DNA of 64,000 nt from the NCBI RefSeq assembly GCF_000027125.1, contig NC_017626.1; one strand, written 5' to 3'. This document shows, piece after piece, positions 26,404 to 51,833 of this stretch (the stretch's first letter is position 1; each line of letters begins with the position of its first letter). Source of the stretch: Escherichia coli 042. Its GTDB lineage: Bacteria; Pseudomonadota; Gammaproteobacteria; Enterobacterales; Enterobacteriaceae. Below the pieces are notes generated by a model. It was not told the DNA's origin, ran no database searches, and saw only the letters and a list, made by a program, of their open reading frames with translations. Made by a program: the position numbers and the translations under genes.

Positions 26404-26410
<7 letters not shown>

Positions 26411-27015
26411 CAGAACAACAACGTCACGAACTGGACTGGGAAAAAACCGACGGACTGATGCCGGTGATTGTACAACACGCGGTATCTGGCGAAGTGTTAA
26501 TGCTGGGCTATATGAACCCGGAAGCTCTGGACAAAACCATCGAAAGTGGCAAAGTTACCTTCTTCTCGCGCACTAAACAGCGACTGTGGACCAAAGGCGA
26601 AACGTCGGGTAATTTCCTCAACGTAGTGAGTATTGCGTCGGACTGCGACAACGACACTTTATTAGTGCTGGCGAATCCCATCGGCCCGACCTGCCACAAA
26701 GGCACCAGCAGTTGCTTCGGCAACACCGCTCACCAGTGGCTGTTCCTGTATCAACTGGAACAACTGCTCGCCGAACGTAAATCTGCCGACCCGGAAACCT
26801 CTTACACAGCCAAACTGTATGCCAGCGGCACCAAACGCATCGCGCAGAAAGTGGGCGAAGAAGGGGTGGAAACTGCGCTGGCAGCAACGGTACATGACCG
26901 CTTTGAGCTGACCAACGAGGCATCTGACTTGATGTATCACCTGCTGGTGCTGTTGCAGGATCAGGGGCTGGATTTAACGACGGTGATTGAGAACCTGCGC
27001 AAACGGCATCAGTGA
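26404..27015 (+). CDS. hisI: Bifunctional phosphoribosyl-AMP cyclohydrolase / phosphoribosyl-ATP pyrophosphatase, 203 aa
   Basis: Last gene of the operon; length; overlaps the hisF end. Confidence 0.95.
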
Positions 27016-27025
27016 GTTGCGGACT

Positions 27026-27143
27026 GACCGGATGCGATGTTGTAGTCGCATCCGTAGCCATTGCCCGATGCGCAAGCTTATCGGGCCTACTATTCGCTCT
27101 GCACATTTTGGCTGGATAAGATGCGCCAGCATCGCATCCGGCA
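27026..27143. repeat. Cluster of REP-type palindromic units downstream of hisI
   Basis: Units such as ccggatgcgat...tcgcatccg, gcccgatgcgcaagcttatcgggcctac and ggctggataagatgcgccagcatcgcatccggc match the REP consensus. Confidence 0.55.
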
Positions 27144-27184
27144 AAAAAAACGGGCAAGGTGTCACCACCCTGCCCATTTTCTTT
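27143..27184. terminator. Bidirectional terminator between hisI and wzzB
   Basis: A8 run, stem gggcaaggtg (27152-27161) / caccctgccc (27166-27175) with one mismatch, then a T-rich run. Confidence 0.6.
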
Positions 27185-27197
27185 AAAACTGCAAAGA

Positions 27198-28175
27198 TTA
27201 TTTCGCGTTGTAATTGCGTAGAGCGTTACGCCCCAGCACAATCCCCGCGCCAACCATGCCACCCAGTAGCACTGCCAGAATCAAGGTAATTGCCTTTTTC
27301 GGGCTATCGCGACGAATAGGTAACGTCGGTTTCATCACATAACGGTAAGCATGAATATCAAGATCATCAACCTTTAAGCTTTCGATATCCAGCAGGTTTT
27401 GACGAGTCTGATAGTAGTTTGGTGAGAACACCAACGGACGGGTCGCCTCATGCTTAATCATCGACTCCAGTGCTTCGCTCCCAAGAAGGAACAACGTATC
27501 TTGCGTCACATCTTCAGTCTGCTGAACCTGTGGTTTTGTCACCTGCGCCTGATTCGCATACTGCAATGCTTCCTGAATCTGACGGATACGCAGATCTTTC
27601 TGCTCCTGCGCGACCACTTCCTGCGTTCTTAAAGAGTCCTGCAAGTTTTTCCGTCCCAGAGCAATGTTGTCTTTGAGATCCTTTTCTAGCTCTTGATTCA
27701 CTTTATCGTCAACTTGCTGAATGTATTGGGCCAACTTCATTTGTGCGCCCTCTGCAGTTTGCCCAACATAAGAAACAGTCAATGGTAATTGCTGGTTCTT
27801 AACAGAAGGTTCGATGGTAAGTTTTTCTGGTTCTTCCTGATTATCCAGCGTTTCTGCTAATGCAGAGAAGGCAGAACTGAAGCGACCAATCAACGTCTCC
27901 TGCAAATCTGACACTTTCGGTGCAGCCTGACCATAGATAACATTCATGGCATTGTTATAGCCAGCGATTTGCCCCACATCAGGTTGAGTAACGATAGCTG
28001 TGGAAGTCCACTTTTCTTTGGCAACGGCCAGATACCCTATAGCCAGGGCAATAGCAACAATGACAGAGATGATGATTGTCATCTTGCCACGCCACAACTG
28101 CATTAGTAAATCAATCAAATCAATCTGTTCCGGGTCATGGTTTTGCCCAGAAACATTATTATTTTCTACTCTCAT
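27198..28175 (-). CDS. wzzB: O-antigen chain-length determinant WzzB (Cld)
   Basis: Start set at MRVENNNVSGQNHDPEQIDLIDL; N- and C-terminal membrane helices flanking a coiled-coil periplasmic domain. Confidence 0.9.
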   Translation of the reverse strand: MRVENNNVSGQNHDPEQIDLIDLLMQLWRGKMTIIISVIVAIALAIGYLAVAKEKWTSTAIVTQPDVGQIAGYNNAMNVIYGQAAPKVSDLQETLIGRFSSAFSALAETLDNQEEPEKLTIEPSVKNQQLPLTVSYVGQTAEGAQMKLAQYIQQVDDKVNQELEKDLKDNIALGRKNLQDSLRTQEVVAQEQKDLRIRQIQEALQYANQAQVTKPQVQQTEDVTQDTLFLLGSEALESMIKHEATRPLVFSPNYYQTRQNLLDIESLKVDDLDIHAYRYVMKPTLPIRRDSPKKAITLILAVLLGGMVGAGIVLGRNALRNYNAK

Positions 28176-28320
28176 CATTACCCTAACTGACGGAAATTTC
28201 CAAGTCCGCATAGTTTAGCGATAATCCTCGTGAATGCTATAGGATAAGTGATAAAAATAATGAATTATTGAGGAAGTAACAAAAGACAATCAGGGCGTAA
28301 ATAGCCCTGATAACAAGATG

Positions 28321-31143: not shown

Positions 31144-31295
31144 TACATACTCCTGTCAGGTGTGGTCACCGCGACATACGCGGTTATGCTTGTAAAGCAG
31201 ATAGTATCAAACAATTAGTAATCTATGTTAGAACTTACTCAAGCTAAGTGTTCATAAATAGAACAAACTAATTCTATTCAAAGAGGACTCATTGA

Positions 31296-39229: not shown

Positions 39230-39268
39230 CACGCTACCGCCCCTGGCTTAACAGCTACCAGTGCACTA
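39230..39268 (-). promoter_or_regulatory. JUMPstart element with ops (GGCGGTAGCGTG on the transcribed strand) in the O-antigen operon leader
   Basis: Plus strand cacgctaccgcccctggcttaacagctaccagtgcacta; ops reverse complement at 39230-39241; near-identical copy upstream of wza. Confidence 0.7.
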
Positions 39269-40591: not shown

Positions 40592-41986
40592 CTACTCTCT
40601 CCGTTCTGGCAATCTAAAGTTAATCTTTTCCACATTAACAATATGGTGATTAACCCTGTCGATATCGACGGAGCTTTGCCCTCTTTCATTCACCGCATGA
40701 ACATTTGCAAGAGACAGCAGTGTTTCTTTTTTCGCCATAAAGACGCCGCGAACGTCTTTGCGCATGTCGAAGTTCATGCTCAATGCGGGTCCAACAGAGG
40801 ATTCCTGCATCACTTTGATATTTCGTATAAAAAGATGTTGCGGTTTGTTGTGTAACTCCAACGAGGCACGCTTCATCTCAATGTTAGTCAGTGCAACAAA
40901 GGAGACAGCATTCCCGGCAGAGATTTGGATACCGCGCAATTTGTAAGCAAGGTGGGTGTTATCCAGCTGAATATTATTCACTCGGAAATTTTGCGGTATC
41001 GAGAGATATTTGCCTTTAATTACCCCATAACCGATTAACATCCCGGCGCTATTAATCATTTCAATATTATCAATCACGAAATTGTCACAACCGTAAATAG
41101 CGACCGTGGCGTTATCAATACCTGCTTTCTTACTGAAATCCGGCGTGATATTGCGGGCTTTGATATTACGAATAACAAAATGTTTACCATTTTCAACATG
41201 GATCAGTTGTCGACAATCCGATCCCGTGATATTCGCCACGACAAAGTTTTTCACTGCCTGGTCTTCCGGGTAGTTATTATCATAAGTACTCCCCGCAAGG
41301 CCTATGCCGATTCCCCAGTTGATTTTGCCGTTGGTACAGTTGATGCGCTCGATGATGTGGTCGGAGATCAAAATATCACTGTCGTTAATCGCCACGTTCC
41401 ATTCAATGGCGTCCCCCTGTAAGTCGCTGAACTTACAATTGGTGATGTTGGCACCGATAATCTGGTTATGAAATCCCTGACGTAAGATGGCGTAATTAGC
41501 GTGGCTGACAGTGAGGTTATCGATGGTCAGGTTGCGCATGACCCGTTTGTTTTTGCCGCCGATATAAATCTGCGTTACTGGGCCAAAGCCGCTCATCGCC
41601 AGCCCTTTGATGGTGCAGTCAGAGCCGCGCACATCCAGGGTGATGTTATGCATACTGCCGCCCTCCTCCCCTGTCACCTGGCTGCCGTCTTGTAAGACAA
41701 AACGCCCTCTGCCGTTGCCGCGCAGGCTTCCAAGGATGTGTAACGTTTTGCCAGGAGGAATGAAGATGCCGGTGTTGATATTTTCACAAACCAATCCGGC
41801 AGGCACGACGACCGTTTGCCCTTCGCTGAAGGCTTGTTTAAATGAAGCAATCCAGTCGTGTGGGTTGTAGTCGTTAATGTTAACGCTTTGCCGGGCAGGA
41901 AGTGCTCGGGCGAAAGGCGTATGAAGGAAGGCAAGCGCCGAGCTTACCGTCAGGAAAGTGCGTCGGGAGAGTTTTTTAAATGGCAT
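40592..41986 (-). CDS. wcaM: Colanic acid biosynthesis protein WcaM, 464 aa
   Basis: Length identical to K-12; Tat-like signal (SRRTFL); last gene of the cluster. Confidence 0.9.
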
Positions 41987-41996
41987 ACGTTCTCCT

Positions 41997-43217
41997 CTAT
42001 AAAGCTTGCAGCAAGCTGGCGAGTTCTCGATTAATCACCTGCTGGTTAAAATCATGTTCGACTTTTTCGCGCGCACGTTTGATAACCGGAGCCAGTTCGT
42101 CGGTGTCCAGTTGGCTAAACGCCGCCAGTCGTTGCGCCAGTGCACGGGCATCGTTCTCAGGCACCAGCCAGCCGGATTTGTCAGCCTCCACCAGTTCCGG
42201 TATTCCGCTATGCAGAGTAGAAACCACCGGAATGCCGACCGCCATCGCTTCCATTAGCGCCACCGGAATGCCTTCCATATCACCATCCGCACCTGTAACC
42301 GATGGCAACAGGAAGACATCCGCGTCGTCGAGCATCGCTTTCACTTCGTGGCTCGGTTTAAAGCCCGGCATCTCCACCACATCTTCCAGTTGATATTGTT
42401 CGATGAGGGTGCGCAGGCGTCGTTCCCACGGGCCAATGCCGAGGATGCGATAGCGAAATGCCACGCCCTGCTCTTTCAACTGACGGCAGGATTCGATCGC
42501 CACATGCAGGCCTTTTTTCTCGGTTAAGCGTGCGACGGAGATGATTTCCAGCGGTATTGCGGGCGCTTTCACCGGACGCGGGCTAAAACGCGTCATGTCC
42601 ACGCCCATGCGCGATACGGCAATTTTTTCCCTCGGGCAGCCCATTTTTTGCAGCCTTCCGGCCCAGAGATCGCTGATCGGTAGCATCAAATCGCCACGGC
42701 GAAACAGTTGCTGATATTCGGGGGTGTAGTGGTTGAGCACTTCCCGACTGGAGATATCAATGCCGTGGAAGATAGTAGCGATTTTGCCGCGAATGACACC
42801 CAGTTCCCGTAGTTTTGCTGCGGTTACCCCCGCCGGGCCAAAATGAGCGATGAACACATCGGCATAAAATGGTGTTGCGACCTGGCCGCAAATGGCAGAC
42901 AAAATCAGGTTCCGCGACTCGGCACCATAGCGTTTGAGGTTGAGCGCCTGCCAGGTATTTTTGCGATGAATGCCGCGTAAGGTCTGGCTGGCGCGGTGGC
43001 GCAGCTTCGCCACTTTGCCCGTAGGTTCGTCCTGTAACCAGCGGGTTCTGGCGGCAAGGTTGTATTTCGTCCATGCCGCGTGGGTGTTTTGTGTGTCGCC
43101 TTTTTGCAGCGCGACAATCTCCACCTCAAATCCCATATCAATAAACGCAGTGATTTGGTTGAGAACGAAGGTTTCCGACGACAGCGGAAATTTCAGTAAA
43201 AAGAAGCCGACCTTCAT
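41997..43217 (-). CDS. wcaL: Colanic acid glycosyltransferase WcaL, 406 aa
   Basis: Length and order as in K-12. Confidence 0.9.
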
Positions 43218-44494
43218 TTCACCTCCCCGATGCGTTCAAGCACAGATTGCACCATCTGCATTCCCGTCTGACGTTCGCGACTGACGGCTTCGTTAAGTCG
43301 CGCGTTCAGCGCCGGAAGTTGGCCTAAGGTATCCGCAACCATCGCTTGCAGGCTGCCGTCCAGTAAATGACGGATATCAATTGCCATCTCTGGCAGCCCC
43401 AGCTGCTGCATAATCCCGGCGGATTTATGTTCATAGTTGATGGCAATCGCCGGAGTGGCAAAGTTCATCGAGATAATGGCTGAGTGCAGGCGCGTACCGA
43501 CGGTGAGTTCACTGGCACCGAGAATTTTGCCCATTTCCAGATCATTGAGTTCATCCATCACTACGTGGTAACGGGCAGGATCGCAGATGTGCTGGCGCAG
43601 ATTGAGCGCCACCATGCGGTCGTCTTTGTTATAGCTGTCGATGCCCGTACAGGTGGAGAGCGCAATGACCTGATAGCCTTCGTCGAGAATGCGATTGACC
43701 ACCCCGGCAAAGGCTTTTTCATACGCTTGTTGGGTGGTGCCGAGACGTTTGTCGAACGGTGCCAGTTCGCGCAGGGTAATTGCCACCGTTTTCTGTTGTG
43801 CGGCAACGTCCAGCCAGTGTTGAACGGCATAGCTGGCGGTGAAGTCTTCTGTGTGGTGATCGACCAGCCACGCGGTATCGACGCCATGTTCAACTTTTGC
43901 AGTGGAGATATTGCTGCGTTTCATCAAATCAAGGCTGACCGATTCGCGCAGGATCAGCGCATCGCAGTGACCAAAAACGTAGTTCGCCAGTTGGTTAAAT
44001 TGCTCATCCTGGAAGGGGCCGACGCTGTGACCAATCATAAACAGCGGCTTTTTCGCCATAAATGTGCAAAGCGCATGTTCAAACTGTGGCACGCCGTAGA
44101 GATCGACAAAAAACGATCCGCCGACCTGAATAATGGCGTCGTAACCTGACAGCAGGCGCACGAAGTCAGTGAATCCCTGGGCGATGGCGATATTACGCAA
44201 CTTGCCAGTGTCGGTGACGCGTGAGAGCAATACCTGATGCTGGTAGCGGCGACGGAGGACTTTTTTAACGCGCCCGACAACGCCCGCCACGCTGTTGTGT
44301 TGTTTCATTTGCAGGAACAGTGGATCGCCCATTACCGGGCGGTTGAGCAGCCAGGAAGAACTGACCGGATAGCGGCTCATCACGTCCACTTCGGCATGTG
44401 GATTGAGGATGTTGATGGCATCAAGTAAGCCGCGCAGGATGGCGCTGTCGCCACGATTGCCGCAAGTGTGGTTGCCCAGAATAAGTAATTTCAT
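43214..44494 (-). CDS. wcaK: Colanic acid pyruvyl transferase WcaK, 426 aa
   Basis: Length and order as in K-12. Confidence 0.9.
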   Translation of the reverse strand: MKLLILGNHTCGNRGDSAILRGLLDAINILNPHAEVDVMSRYPVSSSWLLNRPVMGDPLFLQMKQHNSVAGVVGRVKKVLRRRYQHQVLLSRVTDTGKLRNIAIAQGFTDFVRLLSGYDAIIQVGGSFFVDLYGVPQFEHALCTFMAKKPLFMIGHSVGPFQDEQFNQLANYVFGHCDALILRESVSLDLMKRSNISTAKVEHGVDTAWLVDHHTEDFTASYAVQHWLDVAAQQKTVAITLRELAPFDKRLGTTQQAYEKAFAGVVNRILDEGYQVIALSTCTGIDSYNKDDRMVALNLRQHICDPARYHVVMDELNDLEMGKILGASELTVGTRLHSAIISMNFATPAIAINYEHKSAGIMQQLGLPEMAIDIRHLLDGSLQAMVADTLGQLPALNARLNEAVSRERQTGMQMVQSVLERIGEVK

Positions 44495-44555
44495 TTTTTC
44501 CTCATAAATTTGATGCCAGGTGAAGCTGCGTTTGTTTTGTTCGTTGCCGCTTTTT

Positions 44556-44742
44556 GCCTGATGCGACGCTGGCGCGTCTTATCAGGCCTACAAGACCCGA
44601 GCACAGAACCGTAGGCCGGATAAGGCGTTCACGCCGCATCCGGCATTCAGTGCCTGATGCGACGCTGACGCGTCTTATCAGGCCTACAGGTCCCGAGCAC
44701 AGAACCGTAGGACGGATAAGGCGTTTTACGCCGCATCCGGCA
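44556..44742. repeat. Tandem pair of BIME units (each a REP pair) between wcaK and wzxC
   Basis: gcctgatgcgacgctg[g/a]cgcgtcttatcaggcctaca...gtagg[c/a]cggataaggcgtt...cgccgcatccggca present twice, about 96 bp apart. Confidence 0.7.
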
Positions 44743-44769
44743 ACCATTGCCGGAACCGAAAACAACAAC

Positions 44770-46248
44770 TCACCCCGCCCGTAAAAGCATTTTCATTTTT
44801 TCGCTGCGACAAAACTGACGCTTCACTTCCACCACCAGCGGATGGCGCGACAGCACAATCATCACTACAAACGCCAGCACGCCTGCGGCTATTTGCACCG
44901 CCAGCAGCATCCCCAGCGCCAGTTGCCCTTTCAGCACAATGCCCAGCGCATAACTGACCACCAGCGTCGGCAGCGAGAGATAAAACGGCAGCCATAAACT
45001 CAGGATGTACTGGCGATAACTGGAACCGAGCACCGGTTTAATCATCACGAAGTAACTCAGAATGGTGTTGATAATCTGCACCAGCAGGAAGCCGAGCGTG
45101 ACGCCGATTGCGCCCGCCATTTGCCCACCTATAACAATCGCCGGAATAAACAGAAAGGTTTTGAATACGTTGAATTTAAAGCTGATATCGACCCGCGCTT
45201 TCGCCATCAGCAGCGAACCAATCGGGTTCCCCACTGAGCGCAGCAGCCCCACCACACACAGTAAATGCAGCACCGGAATAATGCTGTTCCACTTCTCACC
45301 AAAGACCAGCGGTACAAAGTTATTCGACACCACCATCAGCCCCAGCAGCGCCGGAAAGTTGATAATCCCCACCACCGACAGCAGCTTGTAGAAGTTGACG
45401 CGCAGCTTTTCGGTGTCGTCCTGAATTTTGGCAAATGCCGGAAACAACACGCGGGTGATGATCGGGTTCAGCTTCATCGGCGGCACAACGGCCACGTTGT
45501 ACGCCAGGTTGTATCCCCCTGCCACGCCCGCGCCAAGAATACGCGCCAGCACCAGCGTTGAAAGGTTGGTGTTGAGATAGTTGATGATGCTGTCCGCCGT
45601 CAGCCAGGCACCAAAACGTAAGTTCGGTGCTACCGACGCCAGCGAGAAGTGCAGACCGGGACGATAAATTTTGCGGCCAAAGTAGCCAAACAGCAGCGTT
45701 CTTACCGTACTATTGACCAGATAACCGAGGATCGCGGTCATCGCCAGCGGCCAGAAATGGGCGCTAACCACAGTAAAAGTGAAGCCCGCCAGCACCGCGC
45801 TGGTTTCGATCATGCCGATTTTGTTGAACTCCAGCTCCTTCTGCATCAACGCGCGGAACTGTTGCCCGTGGGGGATCACCACAAACGCCAGCGACAATGT
45901 TTTAATCAACGGTGCCAGGTCCGGGTTATTCAGCACGTCGCCGATGAGATCACTCAACAAAAACACCGCCACGCACACCACGATCCCCAGCCCGACGTTC
46001 AGCCAGTACAGCGTGGTGAGTTCAAGGTGGCTGATTTCTTTTCGCTGAATAATCGAGTTAGCGATACCGAAGTCAGAAAGCGTATCTGCCAGCGCGATAA
46101 TCACCAGCGACACAGTCAGCAGGCCGAACTGGTGGTTGTCGATAATCCGCGCCAGCACGGTCATCTGTACCAGCCCGAGGCCGATGATGATCACCGTGGC
46201 AATCGCCGACCACTTCGCGCCGCTGATGGTTTTTTCACGTAAGCTCAT
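44770..46248 (-). CDS. wzxC: Colanic acid repeat-unit flippase WzxC, 492 aa
   Basis: Length and order as in K-12; multi-pass membrane protein. Confidence 0.9.
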   Translation of the reverse strand: MSLREKTISGAKWSAIATVIIIGLGLVQMTVLARIIDNHQFGLLTVSLVIIALADTLSDFGIANSIIQRKEISHLELTTLYWLNVGLGIVVCVAVFLLSDLIGDVLNNPDLAPLIKTLSLAFVVIPHGQQFRALMQKELEFNKIGMIETSAVLAGFTFTVVSAHFWPLAMTAILGYLVNSTVRTLLFGYFGRKIYRPGLHFSLASVAPNLRFGAWLTADSIINYLNTNLSTLVLARILGAGVAGGYNLAYNVAVVPPMKLNPIITRVLFPAFAKIQDDTEKLRVNFYKLLSVVGIINFPALLGLMVVSNNFVPLVFGEKWNSIIPVLHLLCVVGLLRSVGNPIGSLLMAKARVDISFKFNVFKTFLFIPAIVIGGQMAGAIGVTLGFLLVQIINTILSYFVMIKPVLGSSYRQYILSLWLPFYLSLPTLVVSYALGIVLKGQLALGMLLAVQIAAGVLAFVVMIVLSRHPLVVEVKRQFCRSEKMKMLLRAG

Positions 46249-50609: not shown

Positions 50610-51833
50610 TTATCCCCGAATATCATTTATAAATTGACGTAACACGTTCTCTTTATCGAGCGTGCGTTCGGCATATTCACGTGCCACCGTGTTGTGTTTG
50701 GGCAGCAGGAGCGCCTGACGAATCCCCGCCACCAGCGCCTCGACCGATTCCGGTTCAACGCAAACCGCAATGCCCGGAAAGGTTTCGCAAAGGTGTCCCA
50801 GTTCGGTGTGAGCTTCTGCGGTAATCACCGCGTTGCCGCCTACCGCCAGAATATTGGTCAGTTTCGACGGCAATACGGCATCCGCCGCGCCGCGTTTTTG
50901 CACCACCAGATGGCAATCGCCCATCTTCAGCAGTGCGGGTAAAGCGTCATACGATTGCAGCGGGAAGAATTGCATGTTGCGCAGTCCACGCTGTTGCGCC
51001 ATTTTTTCCAGTCGCGCTTTGCCGCCGCCCTGCCCGACAATGGCAAAAATCAGCGGTTCATCACGCAGGCGTTCGGCAGCTTCAATAACGTTTTCCAGCC
51101 CCTGCTTTTCACCAATATTGCCGGAGTAAAGAATGATTTTTTTGTTATCCGGCAGGCCAAGCTGGTTACGAAGGGCATCAACATCGGCCTCTGCGACATG
51201 CTGAAAACGGGTAATTTCTGACCAGTTGGGGAAGAAGATGACGTTTTCTGCCGCCACGCCTTTTTCGATGGCTTTATTCATCATCGAACGCGAAATCGTG
51301 GAGACGTTATCGACGTTATGCAGTCCGCTACGTTCGAACGCCGTTGCCAGCTGTGCCACTTTGCCGCCTTTGCCTTTTCCGGCAAGGCCCAGCCCCAGCA
51401 TGGCGTCCACTTCGTAATCCTGAATATGCAGCACGGTACGCGCGCCAGAGAGTTTCGCCAGCAGGCGCATTCCCGGCGTGCAAAACAGCGTTGGCACTAC
51501 GCCGATAATGCGATCCGGCTTCCAGCGACGTTGCGCCATCAACGGGAAAAAACTGCTGGCGGCAAAACTGCCGAGATGCAACAGGCGTTTCAGGGTGCTC
51601 GGCTGTTTTGGCACGTACAGCGGGCAGCGCCACACCGTGGCGGCCCCCTCTTCTCGTTTGTACCGCCAGGCGGAATAGTTCTCGCCCACCTGCCATTGCG
51701 GGTAGTAAGGCGGTGCGGTAATAACCCGCACCTCATGACCTTGTGCCGCCAGCCATTCCACCATCTCTCCGGTGTATTTGCCGATACCGGTTAACTCCGG
51801 CGAGTAGTTAATGCCGTAGACCAGTATTTTCAT
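50610..51833 (-). CDS. wcaI: Colanic acid glycosyltransferase WcaI, 407 aa
   Basis: Length and order as in K-12. Confidence 0.9.

Follow-up and report, generated by a model that had tools for sequence, protein, structure and literature searches.

The window analyzed here is a stretch of 64,000 nucleotides from Escherichia coli 042 (NCBI RefSeq assembly GCF_000027125.1, contig NC_017626.1) whose minus strand carries the colanic acid operon. An array of repetitive extragenic palindromes (REPs) occupies the intercistronic gap between two minus-strand genes of this operon, wzxC and wcaK. The gene wcaJ lies directly upstream of wzxC, all open reading frames flanking the array are on the minus strand, and wzxC, wcaK, wcaL, wcaM, and wcaJ each give end-to-end matches to NCBIfam equivalog models. 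The features of the locus are as follows, with positions counted from the first base of the window and with hairpin energies as predicted for each palindrome by itself.

40592-41986, minus strand: wcaM (NCBIfam NF007517, 1022.7 bits)
41997-43217, minus strand: wcaL (NCBIfam TIGR04005, 877.2 bits)
43214-44494, minus strand: wcaK, colanic acid pyruvyl transferase, directly downstream of the array (NCBIfam TIGR04006, 925.5 bits; also named so in the RefSeq annotation of matching genomes)
44495-44555, minus strand: spacer of 61 nt from the array to the wcaK ATG, containing the wcaK Shine-Dalgarno sequence
44556-44591, plus strand: Z2-type REP of unit 1, the last hairpin before wcaK on the mRNA (loop TGGC; -20.5 kcal/mol)
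44592-44610, no strand assigned: tail-to-tail linker of unit 1, 19 nt, AAGACCCGAGCACAGAACC
44611-44644, minus strand: Y-type REP of unit 1 (GGCCGG; loop TTCAC; -21.3 kcal/mol)
44645-44651, no strand assigned: head-to-head linker between the units, 7 nt, ATTCAGT, identical between the internal units of 3- to 5-unit alleles
44652-44687, plus strand: Z2-type REP of unit 2 (loop TGAC; -20.5 kcal/mol)
44688-44706, no strand assigned: tail-to-tail linker of unit 2, 19 nt, plus-strand sequence AGGTCCCGAGCACAGAACC
44707-44741, minus strand: Y-type REP of unit 2, the first on the mRNA (GGACGG variant; longer loop TTTTAC; -15.6 kcal/mol)
44742-44769, minus strand: spacer of 28 nt from the wzxC stop codon to the first REP on the mRNA
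44772-44770, minus strand: wzxC stop codon, TGA
44770-46248, minus strand: wzxC, colanic acid repeat-unit flippase, upstream of the array (NCBIfam NF007773, 832.7 bits, model positions 1-492 of 492; also named so in the RefSeq annotation of matching genomes)
62228-63367, minus strand: wza, in the operon downstream of ops
63550-63557, minus strand: ops element GGCGGTAG (non-template strand) in the leader upstream of wza, the RfaH loading site of the operon that contains the array

Structure of the repeat array

An earlier note on this DNA, made from the sequence alone, described a tandemly duplicated BIME between wcaK and wzxC, and this description is borne out. Tandem Repeats Finder places a repeat at 44555-44742 with a period of 96, 1.9 copies, 93% matches, and a score of 334, while a separate repeat search returned two 75-nt cores, 44555-44629 and 44651-44725, that are 95% identical at an offset of 96 nt. 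The sequence differences that the note quoted between the two units are also present: that between CTGGCGCG and CTGACGCG lies in the Z2 loop, and that between GGCCGG and GGACGG at the Y stem base. The array takes up 188 bp of a gap of 275 bp, which had been called the only sizeable gap in the operon; this is almost correct, with gaps of about 128 bp (wzc-wcaA, where there is a REP too) and about 100 bp (cpsB-cpsG) coming next in size. The wzxC-wcaK gap of K-12 MG1655 is likewise 275 bp long and holds two units.

The array is built from four extragenic imperfect palindromes of 34-36 nt that carry a GTAG/CTAC tail, features which, along with a high genomic copy number, define REPs. On the plus strand, the 36-nt Z2 palindrome reads GCCTGATGCGACGCTG(G/A)CGCGTCTTATCAGGCCTAC (44556-44591 and 44652-44687), and the inverted Y palindrome of 34-35 nt reads GTAGG(C/A)CGGATAAGGCGTT(C/TT)ACGCCGCATCCGGC (44611-44644 and 44707-44741). 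Of six occurrences of the REP tail motif CTTATCMGGCCTAC in the 64-kb window, where 0.45 would be expected, four fall in the array. Downstream of the last palindrome, the wcaK Shine-Dalgarno sequence GAGGA lies about 6 nt 5' of the ATG. Two small open reading frames that run over the array, at 44502-44768 (minus strand, 88 aa) and 44554-44784 (plus strand, 76 aa), were set aside as repeat artefacts, since wcaK and wzxC are the only genes that RefSeq annotates here in any of the fetched alleles.

Assignment to a BIME class

BIME-1 elements combine a Y REP with a Z1 REP across a long L linker that often contains an IHF site, and are single-copy, while BIME-2 elements combine Y with Z2, have short linkers, and occur in tandem with a copy number that varies among strains (PMC3333891). 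The REPs at the wzxC-wcaK junction follow one another on the mRNA as Y, Z2, Y, and Z2 in alternating orientation; the linkers between them are short (19 and 7 nt) and contain neither an L motif nor an IHF site; and the units are in tandem, with 1.9 copies here and 0 to 6 among complete genomes. The longer palindromes are, by their length and in the light of the REP consensus sequences, taken to be Z2 rather than Z1. Given these features, it is nearly certain that the locus holds a two-unit BIME-2 array in which four REP hairpins alternate between Y and Z2.

The earlier note also stated that BIMEs bind IHF. This does not carry over to the present array, since it is the L linker of BIME-1 that carries IHF sites (PMC3333891) whereas the array is BIME-2, formed of Y and Z2 REPs with short linkers. 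The IHF consensus WATCAANNNNTTR has no match in 44495-44769, and the two matches in the whole window are at 31205 and 35221. A BIME-1 of the IHF-binding RIB/RIP kind was thus ruled out by the long Z2 partner, the 7- and 19-nt linkers, the lack of an IHF consensus match, and the tandem arrangement, and the IHF reading is effectively refuted.

The Rfam model RF02564 (naRNA4), which was built on one Y-linker-Z2 unit of the REP325 array (PMC4550694), matches 44614-44684 on the plus strand with 79.7 bits, above its gathering score of 59.5. The matched segment consists of the Y REP of unit 1 and the Z2 REP at 44652-44687, and the match lends support to the Z2 assignment. The plus strand, which lies antisense to the operon, shows no promoter-like site here, and on the mRNA strand the same model reaches 55.4 bits, below the gathering score. 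Searches of both strands found no terminator-like site in 44200-45100 that could represent an intrinsic terminator, and no sigma-70-like promoter at the array that could serve as an internal promoter for wcaK.

Allelic variation and origin of the array

The comparison of copy number across E. coli genomes that the earlier note proposed as a check reveals variation, from 0 to 6 units among complete genomes. A query containing the BIME matched each E. coli genome at a median of 37 places (at least 40 in 4327 records), and because REP-containing queries are swamped in this way by genome-wide REP matches, we searched with the two 500-bp flanks joined to each other and read the size of the insert from the span in each record. 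The flanks are present in 4661 of 5426 complete E. coli genomes. Alleles were counted in an evenly spaced sample of 59 complete genomes, drawn from a collection that is biased to clinical clones, so that the counts are not population frequencies; for genomes that were not fetched, the number of units was inferred from the record span in 96-bp steps. The alleles are given below with the gap length of one fetched example per class for 0 to 5 units.

0 units: 8 of 59 genomes; gap 70 bp
1 unit: 7 of 59 genomes, including every O157:H7 among the matches listed; gap 179 bp
2 units: 18 of 59 genomes, K-12 derivatives included; gap 275 bp
3 units: 6 of 59 genomes; gap 371 bp
4 units: 7 of 59 genomes; gap 467 bp
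5 units: 8 of 59 genomes; gap 563 bp
Damaged single unit: 2 of 59 genomes
Unrelated gap of the BL21 type, with a GC palindrome: 3 of 59 genomes

Two genomes outside this sample have six units, as inferred from a span of 1573. The BL21-type gap is 161 bp long and contains a GC-rich palindrome, which we take to be BoxC-like; it is found in 275 of the 5426 genomes, among them BL21 and the type strain ATCC 11775. Minor variants comprise an allele in which most of a Z2 REP has been deleted between CGA microhomologies, another with a deletion of about 12 bp inside a Z2 REP, and a third with a 9-bp duplication within a linker. Both wzxC and wcaK are intact in all of the 0-unit, unrelated-palindrome, and partly deleted REP alleles.

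Among the fetched alleles with 1 to 5 units, the gaps rise in exact units of 96 bp. The linker of the wcaK-proximal unit is always AAGACCC, and the wzxC-proximal unit always has the linker AGGTCCC and the loop TTTTAC, while the units between them combine a small number of variant sites in mosaic fashion. In O157 strains the single unit is a chimera that joins the 5' half of the first unit to the 3' half of the last. Steps of 96 bp, fixed end units, mosaic internal units, and the O157 chimera are what unequal exchange produces, and the proposal that the array has expanded and contracted in 96-bp steps by unequal recombination between its units is therefore well supported by the allele sequences. 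We have very little doubt that this is a BIME-2 that expands and contracts by exchange of units. The REP-associated transposase TnpA_REP, which recombines BIMEs in vitro (PMC3333891), could aid such recombination.

The pace of this change appears to be slow within clones. Two units are present in all 60 of the best-matching genomes listed for the flanks of the window (99.4-99.7% identical), while among the matches listed with flanks at least 99% identical to those of the five-unit allele, genomes have 1, 2, 5, or 6 units. Variation in copy number thus appears between flank haplotypes that differ by few SNPs. This combination of clonal stability with change over few flanking SNPs points to the behavior of a minisatellite and not to a phase-variable switch. 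The array was also considered as a contingency locus or hypermutable VNTR, and this was rejected on the uniformity of the 60 two-unit relatives and of the listed O157:H7 genomes, all of which have one unit.

Escherichia whittamii and Escherichia sp. MOD1-EC7003 have the wcaK-proximal Z2 REP and the right flank in common with E. coli, and a REP was therefore probably already at the wzxC-wcaK site before E. coli diversified. On either side of the BIME stands a copy of the direct repeat CGGCAA (mRNA sense), and the gap of the 0-unit alleles corresponds to a precise deletion between the two. We infer that the 0-unit alleles are secondary losses, although they could instead be ancestral empty sites.

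Predicted RNA folding and proposed effect on expression

The cps operon is silent under standard laboratory conditions, and when it is expressed the array would be co-transcribed within the wza-wcaM colanic acid mRNA. On the mRNA-sense strand, the array is predicted to fold with an energy of -144.1 kcal/mol (z = -7.7), single REP hairpins with -15.6 to -21.3 kcal/mol, and each extra unit is predicted to contribute about -45 to -75 kcal/mol. Between the wzxC stop codon and the first hairpin lie 28 nt, and 61 nt separate the last hairpin from the wcaK ATG. The minimum free energy structure also contains a predicted outer stem around the array, in which 44778-44753 pairs with 44515-44542 and the wzxC stop codon is included; this stem is weakly conserved, its central part being lost in 0-unit and other alleles with no compensatory changes.

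REPs have been described as forming stable structures that resist digestion by exonucleases, and some of them as taking part in Rho-dependent attenuation (PMC6061677). The REP325 array stabilizes the mRNA upstream of it and attenuates the gene downstream, partly in a Rho-dependent manner (preprint 10.64898/2026.03.23.713779). In that study, the ladder of hairpin-ended RNAs and the response to bicyclomycin were seen only with the full 12-hairpin array, and not with fragments of two or four hairpins. The median log2 ratio of upstream to downstream expression was 0.96 for REP-containing tandem gene pairs versus -0.09 for controls, with a wide spread of effects, and genes with terminal REPs showed no general difference in half-life (10.64898/2026.03.23.713779).

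By analogy, the wzxC-wcaK array most likely acts as REP325 does in the yjdMN operon. Its REP hairpins would block 3'-to-5' exonucleases and in this way stabilize transcripts that end at the array, covering wza to wzxC, and the array would weakly attenuate read-through into wcaK-wcaL-wcaM, in part through Rho. Both the stabilizing and the attenuating effects should rise with the number of hairpins. The presence of ops upstream of wza implies RfaH antitermination through the operon, and an RfaH ChIP signal has been reported over wza-wcaM in CFT073 (PMC9765446). RfaH loaded at ops should suppress the Rho-dependent part of the attenuation, and because this part should be blunted, the net effect on wcaK, wcaL, and wcaM is probably small. 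The array of this strain, with two units and thus four hairpins, matches in size the REP325 fragment that is without Rho dependence. WcaK and WcaL carry out the last two steps in the assembly of the repeat unit (PMC12826051), and strong polarity just before them would be expected to trap undecaprenyl-linked intermediates, which argues against strong attenuation.

Taken jointly, a two-unit BIME-2 identity, an origin by unequal exchange, and a stabilizer and attenuator function like that of REP325 make up the account toward which we lean, although not strongly. The earlier note suggested that copy number could modulate expression of the distal genes wcaK, wcaL, and wcaM; judged by the analogy with REP325, a measurable change of wcaKLM expression with copy number is plausible but somewhat doubtful. 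The suggestion does survive the check on copy number, for the uniformity among strains that would have counted against it is not what the genomes show.

The junction in other species and alternative explanations

A search with WcaK in one genome per species yielded 80 loci, and in 77 of these the wzxC stop and the wcaK start could be placed. In most genera of the Enterobacteriaceae, among them Enterobacter, Leclercia, Lelliottia, Kosakonia, Silvania, Pseudocitrobacter, Trabulsiella, and Buttiauxella, the junction measures 14-40 nt and consists of just the wcaK ribosome-binding site. Junctions of at least 55 bp were found in 27 of the 77 species, and what fills them varies: Citrobacter amalonaticus (109 bp) and Citrobacter sp. 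Awk4 (157 bp) have REP pairs, Salmonella arizonae has one REP, E. whittamii has one Z2 REP, about 12 species of several genera have BoxC-like palindromes, and one species has an ERIC-like element. Neighboring junctions have been invaded far less, with 4 of 75 for wcaJ-wzxC, 1 of 56 for wcaL-wcaM, and 0 of 79 for wcaK-wcaL, which is a 4-nt overlap. Because 0-unit and replaced alleles exist in E. coli and the junctions of other genera are short, the comparison of genomes indicates that the element is dispensable and that colanic acid synthesis does not require the array, which also speaks against a strong effect on expression.

The alternative that best survives these data is that the array is a neutral passenger, a selfish or neutral repeat that has settled at one of the few operon junctions without translational coupling and has no measurable effect on the expression of any colanic acid gene. 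Such a passenger would fit the independent filling, by unrelated repeats, of a junction that is short in most genera, and the contrast between the overlapping wcaK-wcaL junction, never invaded, and wzxC-wcaK, expanded in more than a third of the species. It would also fit the common occurrence in E. coli of 0-unit, damaged, and replaced alleles and the broad spread of copy numbers, from 0 to 5 without a sharp optimum. However, 4 to 12 hairpins of about -20 kcal/mol each within an mRNA are unlikely to be wholly inert, REP325 as the closest tested analog has clear local effects, and tandem gene pairs with REPs are biased genome-wide. We regard effective neutrality as a serious contender, yet one that probably does not hold.

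A role at the level of DNA is less probable, and we consider it unlikely. In that case, the array would act as a topological barrier or a strong site for gyrase and, lying some two-thirds into a 20-kb operon, would absorb the positive supercoils that transcription generates when the Rcs system turns the operon on. BIME-2 elements are enriched in gyrase cleavage sites, with a preference for Y REPs, and the sites remain after treatment with rifampicin, but cleavage has been documented for only a subset of BIME-2 elements, and neither wcaK nor wzxC is named in two supplementary files of that study (PMC6379681). The existence of 0-unit alleles and of short junctions in other genera shows, moreover, that such a site is not needed.

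The array might instead matter chiefly as a recombination substrate, a patch of homology that favors deletions as well as exchange between strains of the neighboring O-antigen and wca segments. Sequence similarity among O157 strains changes abruptly at wcaK-wzxC, and many of the indels there involve REPs (Iguchi et al. 2011, PMC3158064). A second example is offered by MOD1-EC7003, in which a BIME of at least seven REPs before wcaK directly follows a wza'-'wzc remnant; wcaA through wzxC are absent from this junction, which lies in REPs. Such cases are nevertheless few, a 35-nt REP is a short substrate for RecA, and recombination of this kind would be a side effect and not a selected function. 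As the explanation of the array we hold this to be improbable.

Also improbable, in our estimate, is a more ambitious form of the stabilizer and attenuator account, in which the junction is a selected joint where palindromic elements (REP/BIME, BoxC-like, and ERIC-like) have been installed independently and where the 0 to 6 BIME-2 units, with their 0 to 12 hairpins, serve as a heritable dial. If this were true, the dial would set the level of the wcaK-wcaL-wcaM message, and with it pyruvylation and the last sugar transfer, relative to the 17 kb upstream, in concert with RfaH and Rho.

Least probable by far is an IHF site of BIME-1 type or a gene for a nucleoid-associated, naRNA4-like RNA that organizes the chromosome, as the general statement that BIMEs bind IHF is countered here by the lack of a Z1 REP, an L linker, or an IHF consensus at the array, the Rfam match, although above the gathering score, describes nothing beyond a Y-Z2 pair on the antisense strand, and the chromosome compaction ascribed to REP325/naRNA4 was not reproduced (preprint 10.64898/2026.03.23.713779).

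Comparison with known systems

The account of the array as a two-unit BIME-2 that changes by unequal exchange, and that may act as a weak stabilizer and attenuator, describes an element already known in kind and largely in particular, since it is BIME-2 by all of the features tested, is present in K-12, lies at a site where REP indels have been described (PMC3158064), and belongs to a class whose copy number is known to vary (PMC3333891). As it stands, it is a textbook BIME-2 of little consequence. What the present analysis adds is the range of 0 to 6 units, the non-BIME allele, the clonal stability of unit number, and the repeated invasion of this junction across genera. Together with the damaged and replaced alleles, the 0- to 6-unit forms make a natural allelic series of a Y-Z2 array within a long operon that RfaH controls and whose three distal genes complete the colanic acid repeat unit, and the locus is therefore a convenient place to test the relation of REP copy number to operon polarity. 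The 96-bp repeat and its variants are also a source of length polymorphism, of assembly collapse, and of recombination or deletion junctions beside the O-antigen locus, and the polymorphism and junctions are relevant to analyses of serotype switches.

The same wcaK-wzxC region was treated by Iguchi et al. (2011, PMC3158064), who compared six O157 strains and found that two or four REPs had been inserted or were missing. In that study the REPs were unclassified and the units uncounted, whereas the present analysis covers 0 to 6 units, a non-BIME allele, and 77 species. Relative to BIME-2 arrays in general (Gilson/Bachellier classification; Ton-Hoang et al. 2012, PMC3333891), the array has the same inverted, alternating Y and Z2 REPs, short linkers, and tandem units, and, as elsewhere in the family, the unit sequence is well conserved within the locus while copy number varies among strains. 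There is no structural difference, and the wzxC-wcaK array is one locus of that family. The likeness to BIME-1 (RIB/RIP) is limited to the presence of a Y REP in a REP pair; the Z1 partner, the long IHF-bearing L linker, and the single copy that mark BIME-1 are all absent at wzxC-wcaK.

Intercistronic REPs in malE-malF and hisJ-hisQ are the classical cases in which the mRNA of the upstream cistron is more stable than that of the downstream one (Newbury et al. 1987; Stern et al. 1988; as reported in PMC3158064 and PMC6061677). Those effects were measured, as these later accounts describe them, whereas that of the wzxC-wcaK array is inferred, and the operon here has an antitermination system. 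The closest counterpart is REP325, also designated naRNA1-6, between yjdM and yjdN (Qian et al. 2015, PMC4550694; Harris et al. 2026), which is likewise a co-transcribed Y-Z2 BIME-2 between tandem genes and provides the only direct test of how such an array acts (10.64898/2026.03.23.713779). Unlike REP325, which has six 77-nt units and a U motif, the wzxC-wcaK array has two units of 96 nt with other linkers, and the naRNA4 model derived from REP325 finds its best match here on the strand antisense to the operon. REP325 also sits in a two-gene operon, whereas the wzxC-wcaK array lies deep inside a 20-kb operon under the control of ops and RfaH.

The wzxC-wcaK junction across Enterobacteriaceae

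In a comparison of 77 Enterobacteriaceae species (loci L013-L090, bases just upstream of position 2501 in each), the wzxC-wcaK junction was usually 14-40 nt long. Junctions of at least 55 bp were present in 27 of the 77 species, and these are filled by REP pairs, BoxC-like palindromes or, in locus L034, an ERIC-like element. Expansion was almost never seen at the neighbouring junctions in the same comparison.

Within E. coli, an unrelated gap takes the place of the BIME gap in approximately 5% of complete genomes (275/5426), among them BL21 and ATCC 11775, the type strain:

L009 441-601, E. coli BL21(DE3): unrelated 161-bp gap, at the site equivalent to window 44495-44769

This gap contains a GC-rich CCCCTCGCCCCCTGGGGAGAGGGTTAGGGTGAGGGGG palindrome, which we take to be BoxC-like, and its ribosome-binding region is similar to that of other genera.

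Decay and apparent loss of colanic-acid genes

The wcaK/wzxC flanks were unmatched in 765 of the 5426 complete E. coli genomes. Decay among these was examined in one example, E. coli 23CRST049 (L091, NZ_AP045822.1 4526329-4544538), in which the colanic-acid cluster is decayed, with wcaK, the flippase gene and wzc present as pseudogenes and an IS3 element inserted; an ABC-transporter polysaccharide cluster adjoins it. A different arrangement was found in Escherichia sp. MOD1-EC7003:

L087 2100-2500, NZ_PTRE01000090.1: BIME of at least seven REPs before wcaK

Here wzxC is absent upstream of the wcaK BIME, which is directly preceded by part of wza and by the wzc C-terminal end. This strain appears to have undergone a deletion of wcaA through wzxC, at a junction that appears to join the REP following wzc to the BIME next to wcaK.

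Other repeats and ops elements in the window

Additional REPs or REP-like palindromes are located in two other gaps of the window:

59530-59610, minus strand: one REP (GTCGGATGCGATGCTGACGCATCTTATCCGACCTCC), wzc-wcaA gap
27029-27145: three REP-like palindromes, between the ORFs at 26404-27015 and 27198-28211

The first is followed by half of a Y-type REP (GTTCACGCCGCATCCGGC), in a gap of about 128 bp as compared to 92 bp in K-12. The second gap appears to be that between hisI and wzz, where REPs were also reported by Iguchi et al. 2011 (PMC3158064).

Exact ops elements (GGCGGTAG) are found in two leaders:

63550-63557, minus strand: leader upstream of wza
39234-39241, minus strand: O-antigen cluster leader, downstream of galF

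The remaining match, at 50840, falls within a coding region and is probably due to chance.

Coding potential, folding and naRNA4 similarity of the array

Two ORFs run through the array:

44502-44768, minus strand: 88 codons
44554-44784, plus strand: 76 codons

No RefSeq record annotates a gene at this position, and both ORFs are most likely repeat artefacts. Folding predicts a long-range stem pairing 44515-44542 with 44753-44778, which would surround the entire array and take in the wzxC stop codon. This predicted stem recurs in folds of the 0- to 5-unit E. coli alleles, across which its middle shows neither conservation nor compensatory changes.

The nucleoid role of naRNA4 RNA has been disputed in a 2026 preprint (10.64898/2026.03.23.713779). 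The segment 44614-44684 exceeds the gathering threshold of the Rfam naRNA4 model, although this locus is not REP325. In effect the model recognises any Y-Z2 REP pair, and "naRNA4" genome annotations should therefore be read as "BIME-2 unit".
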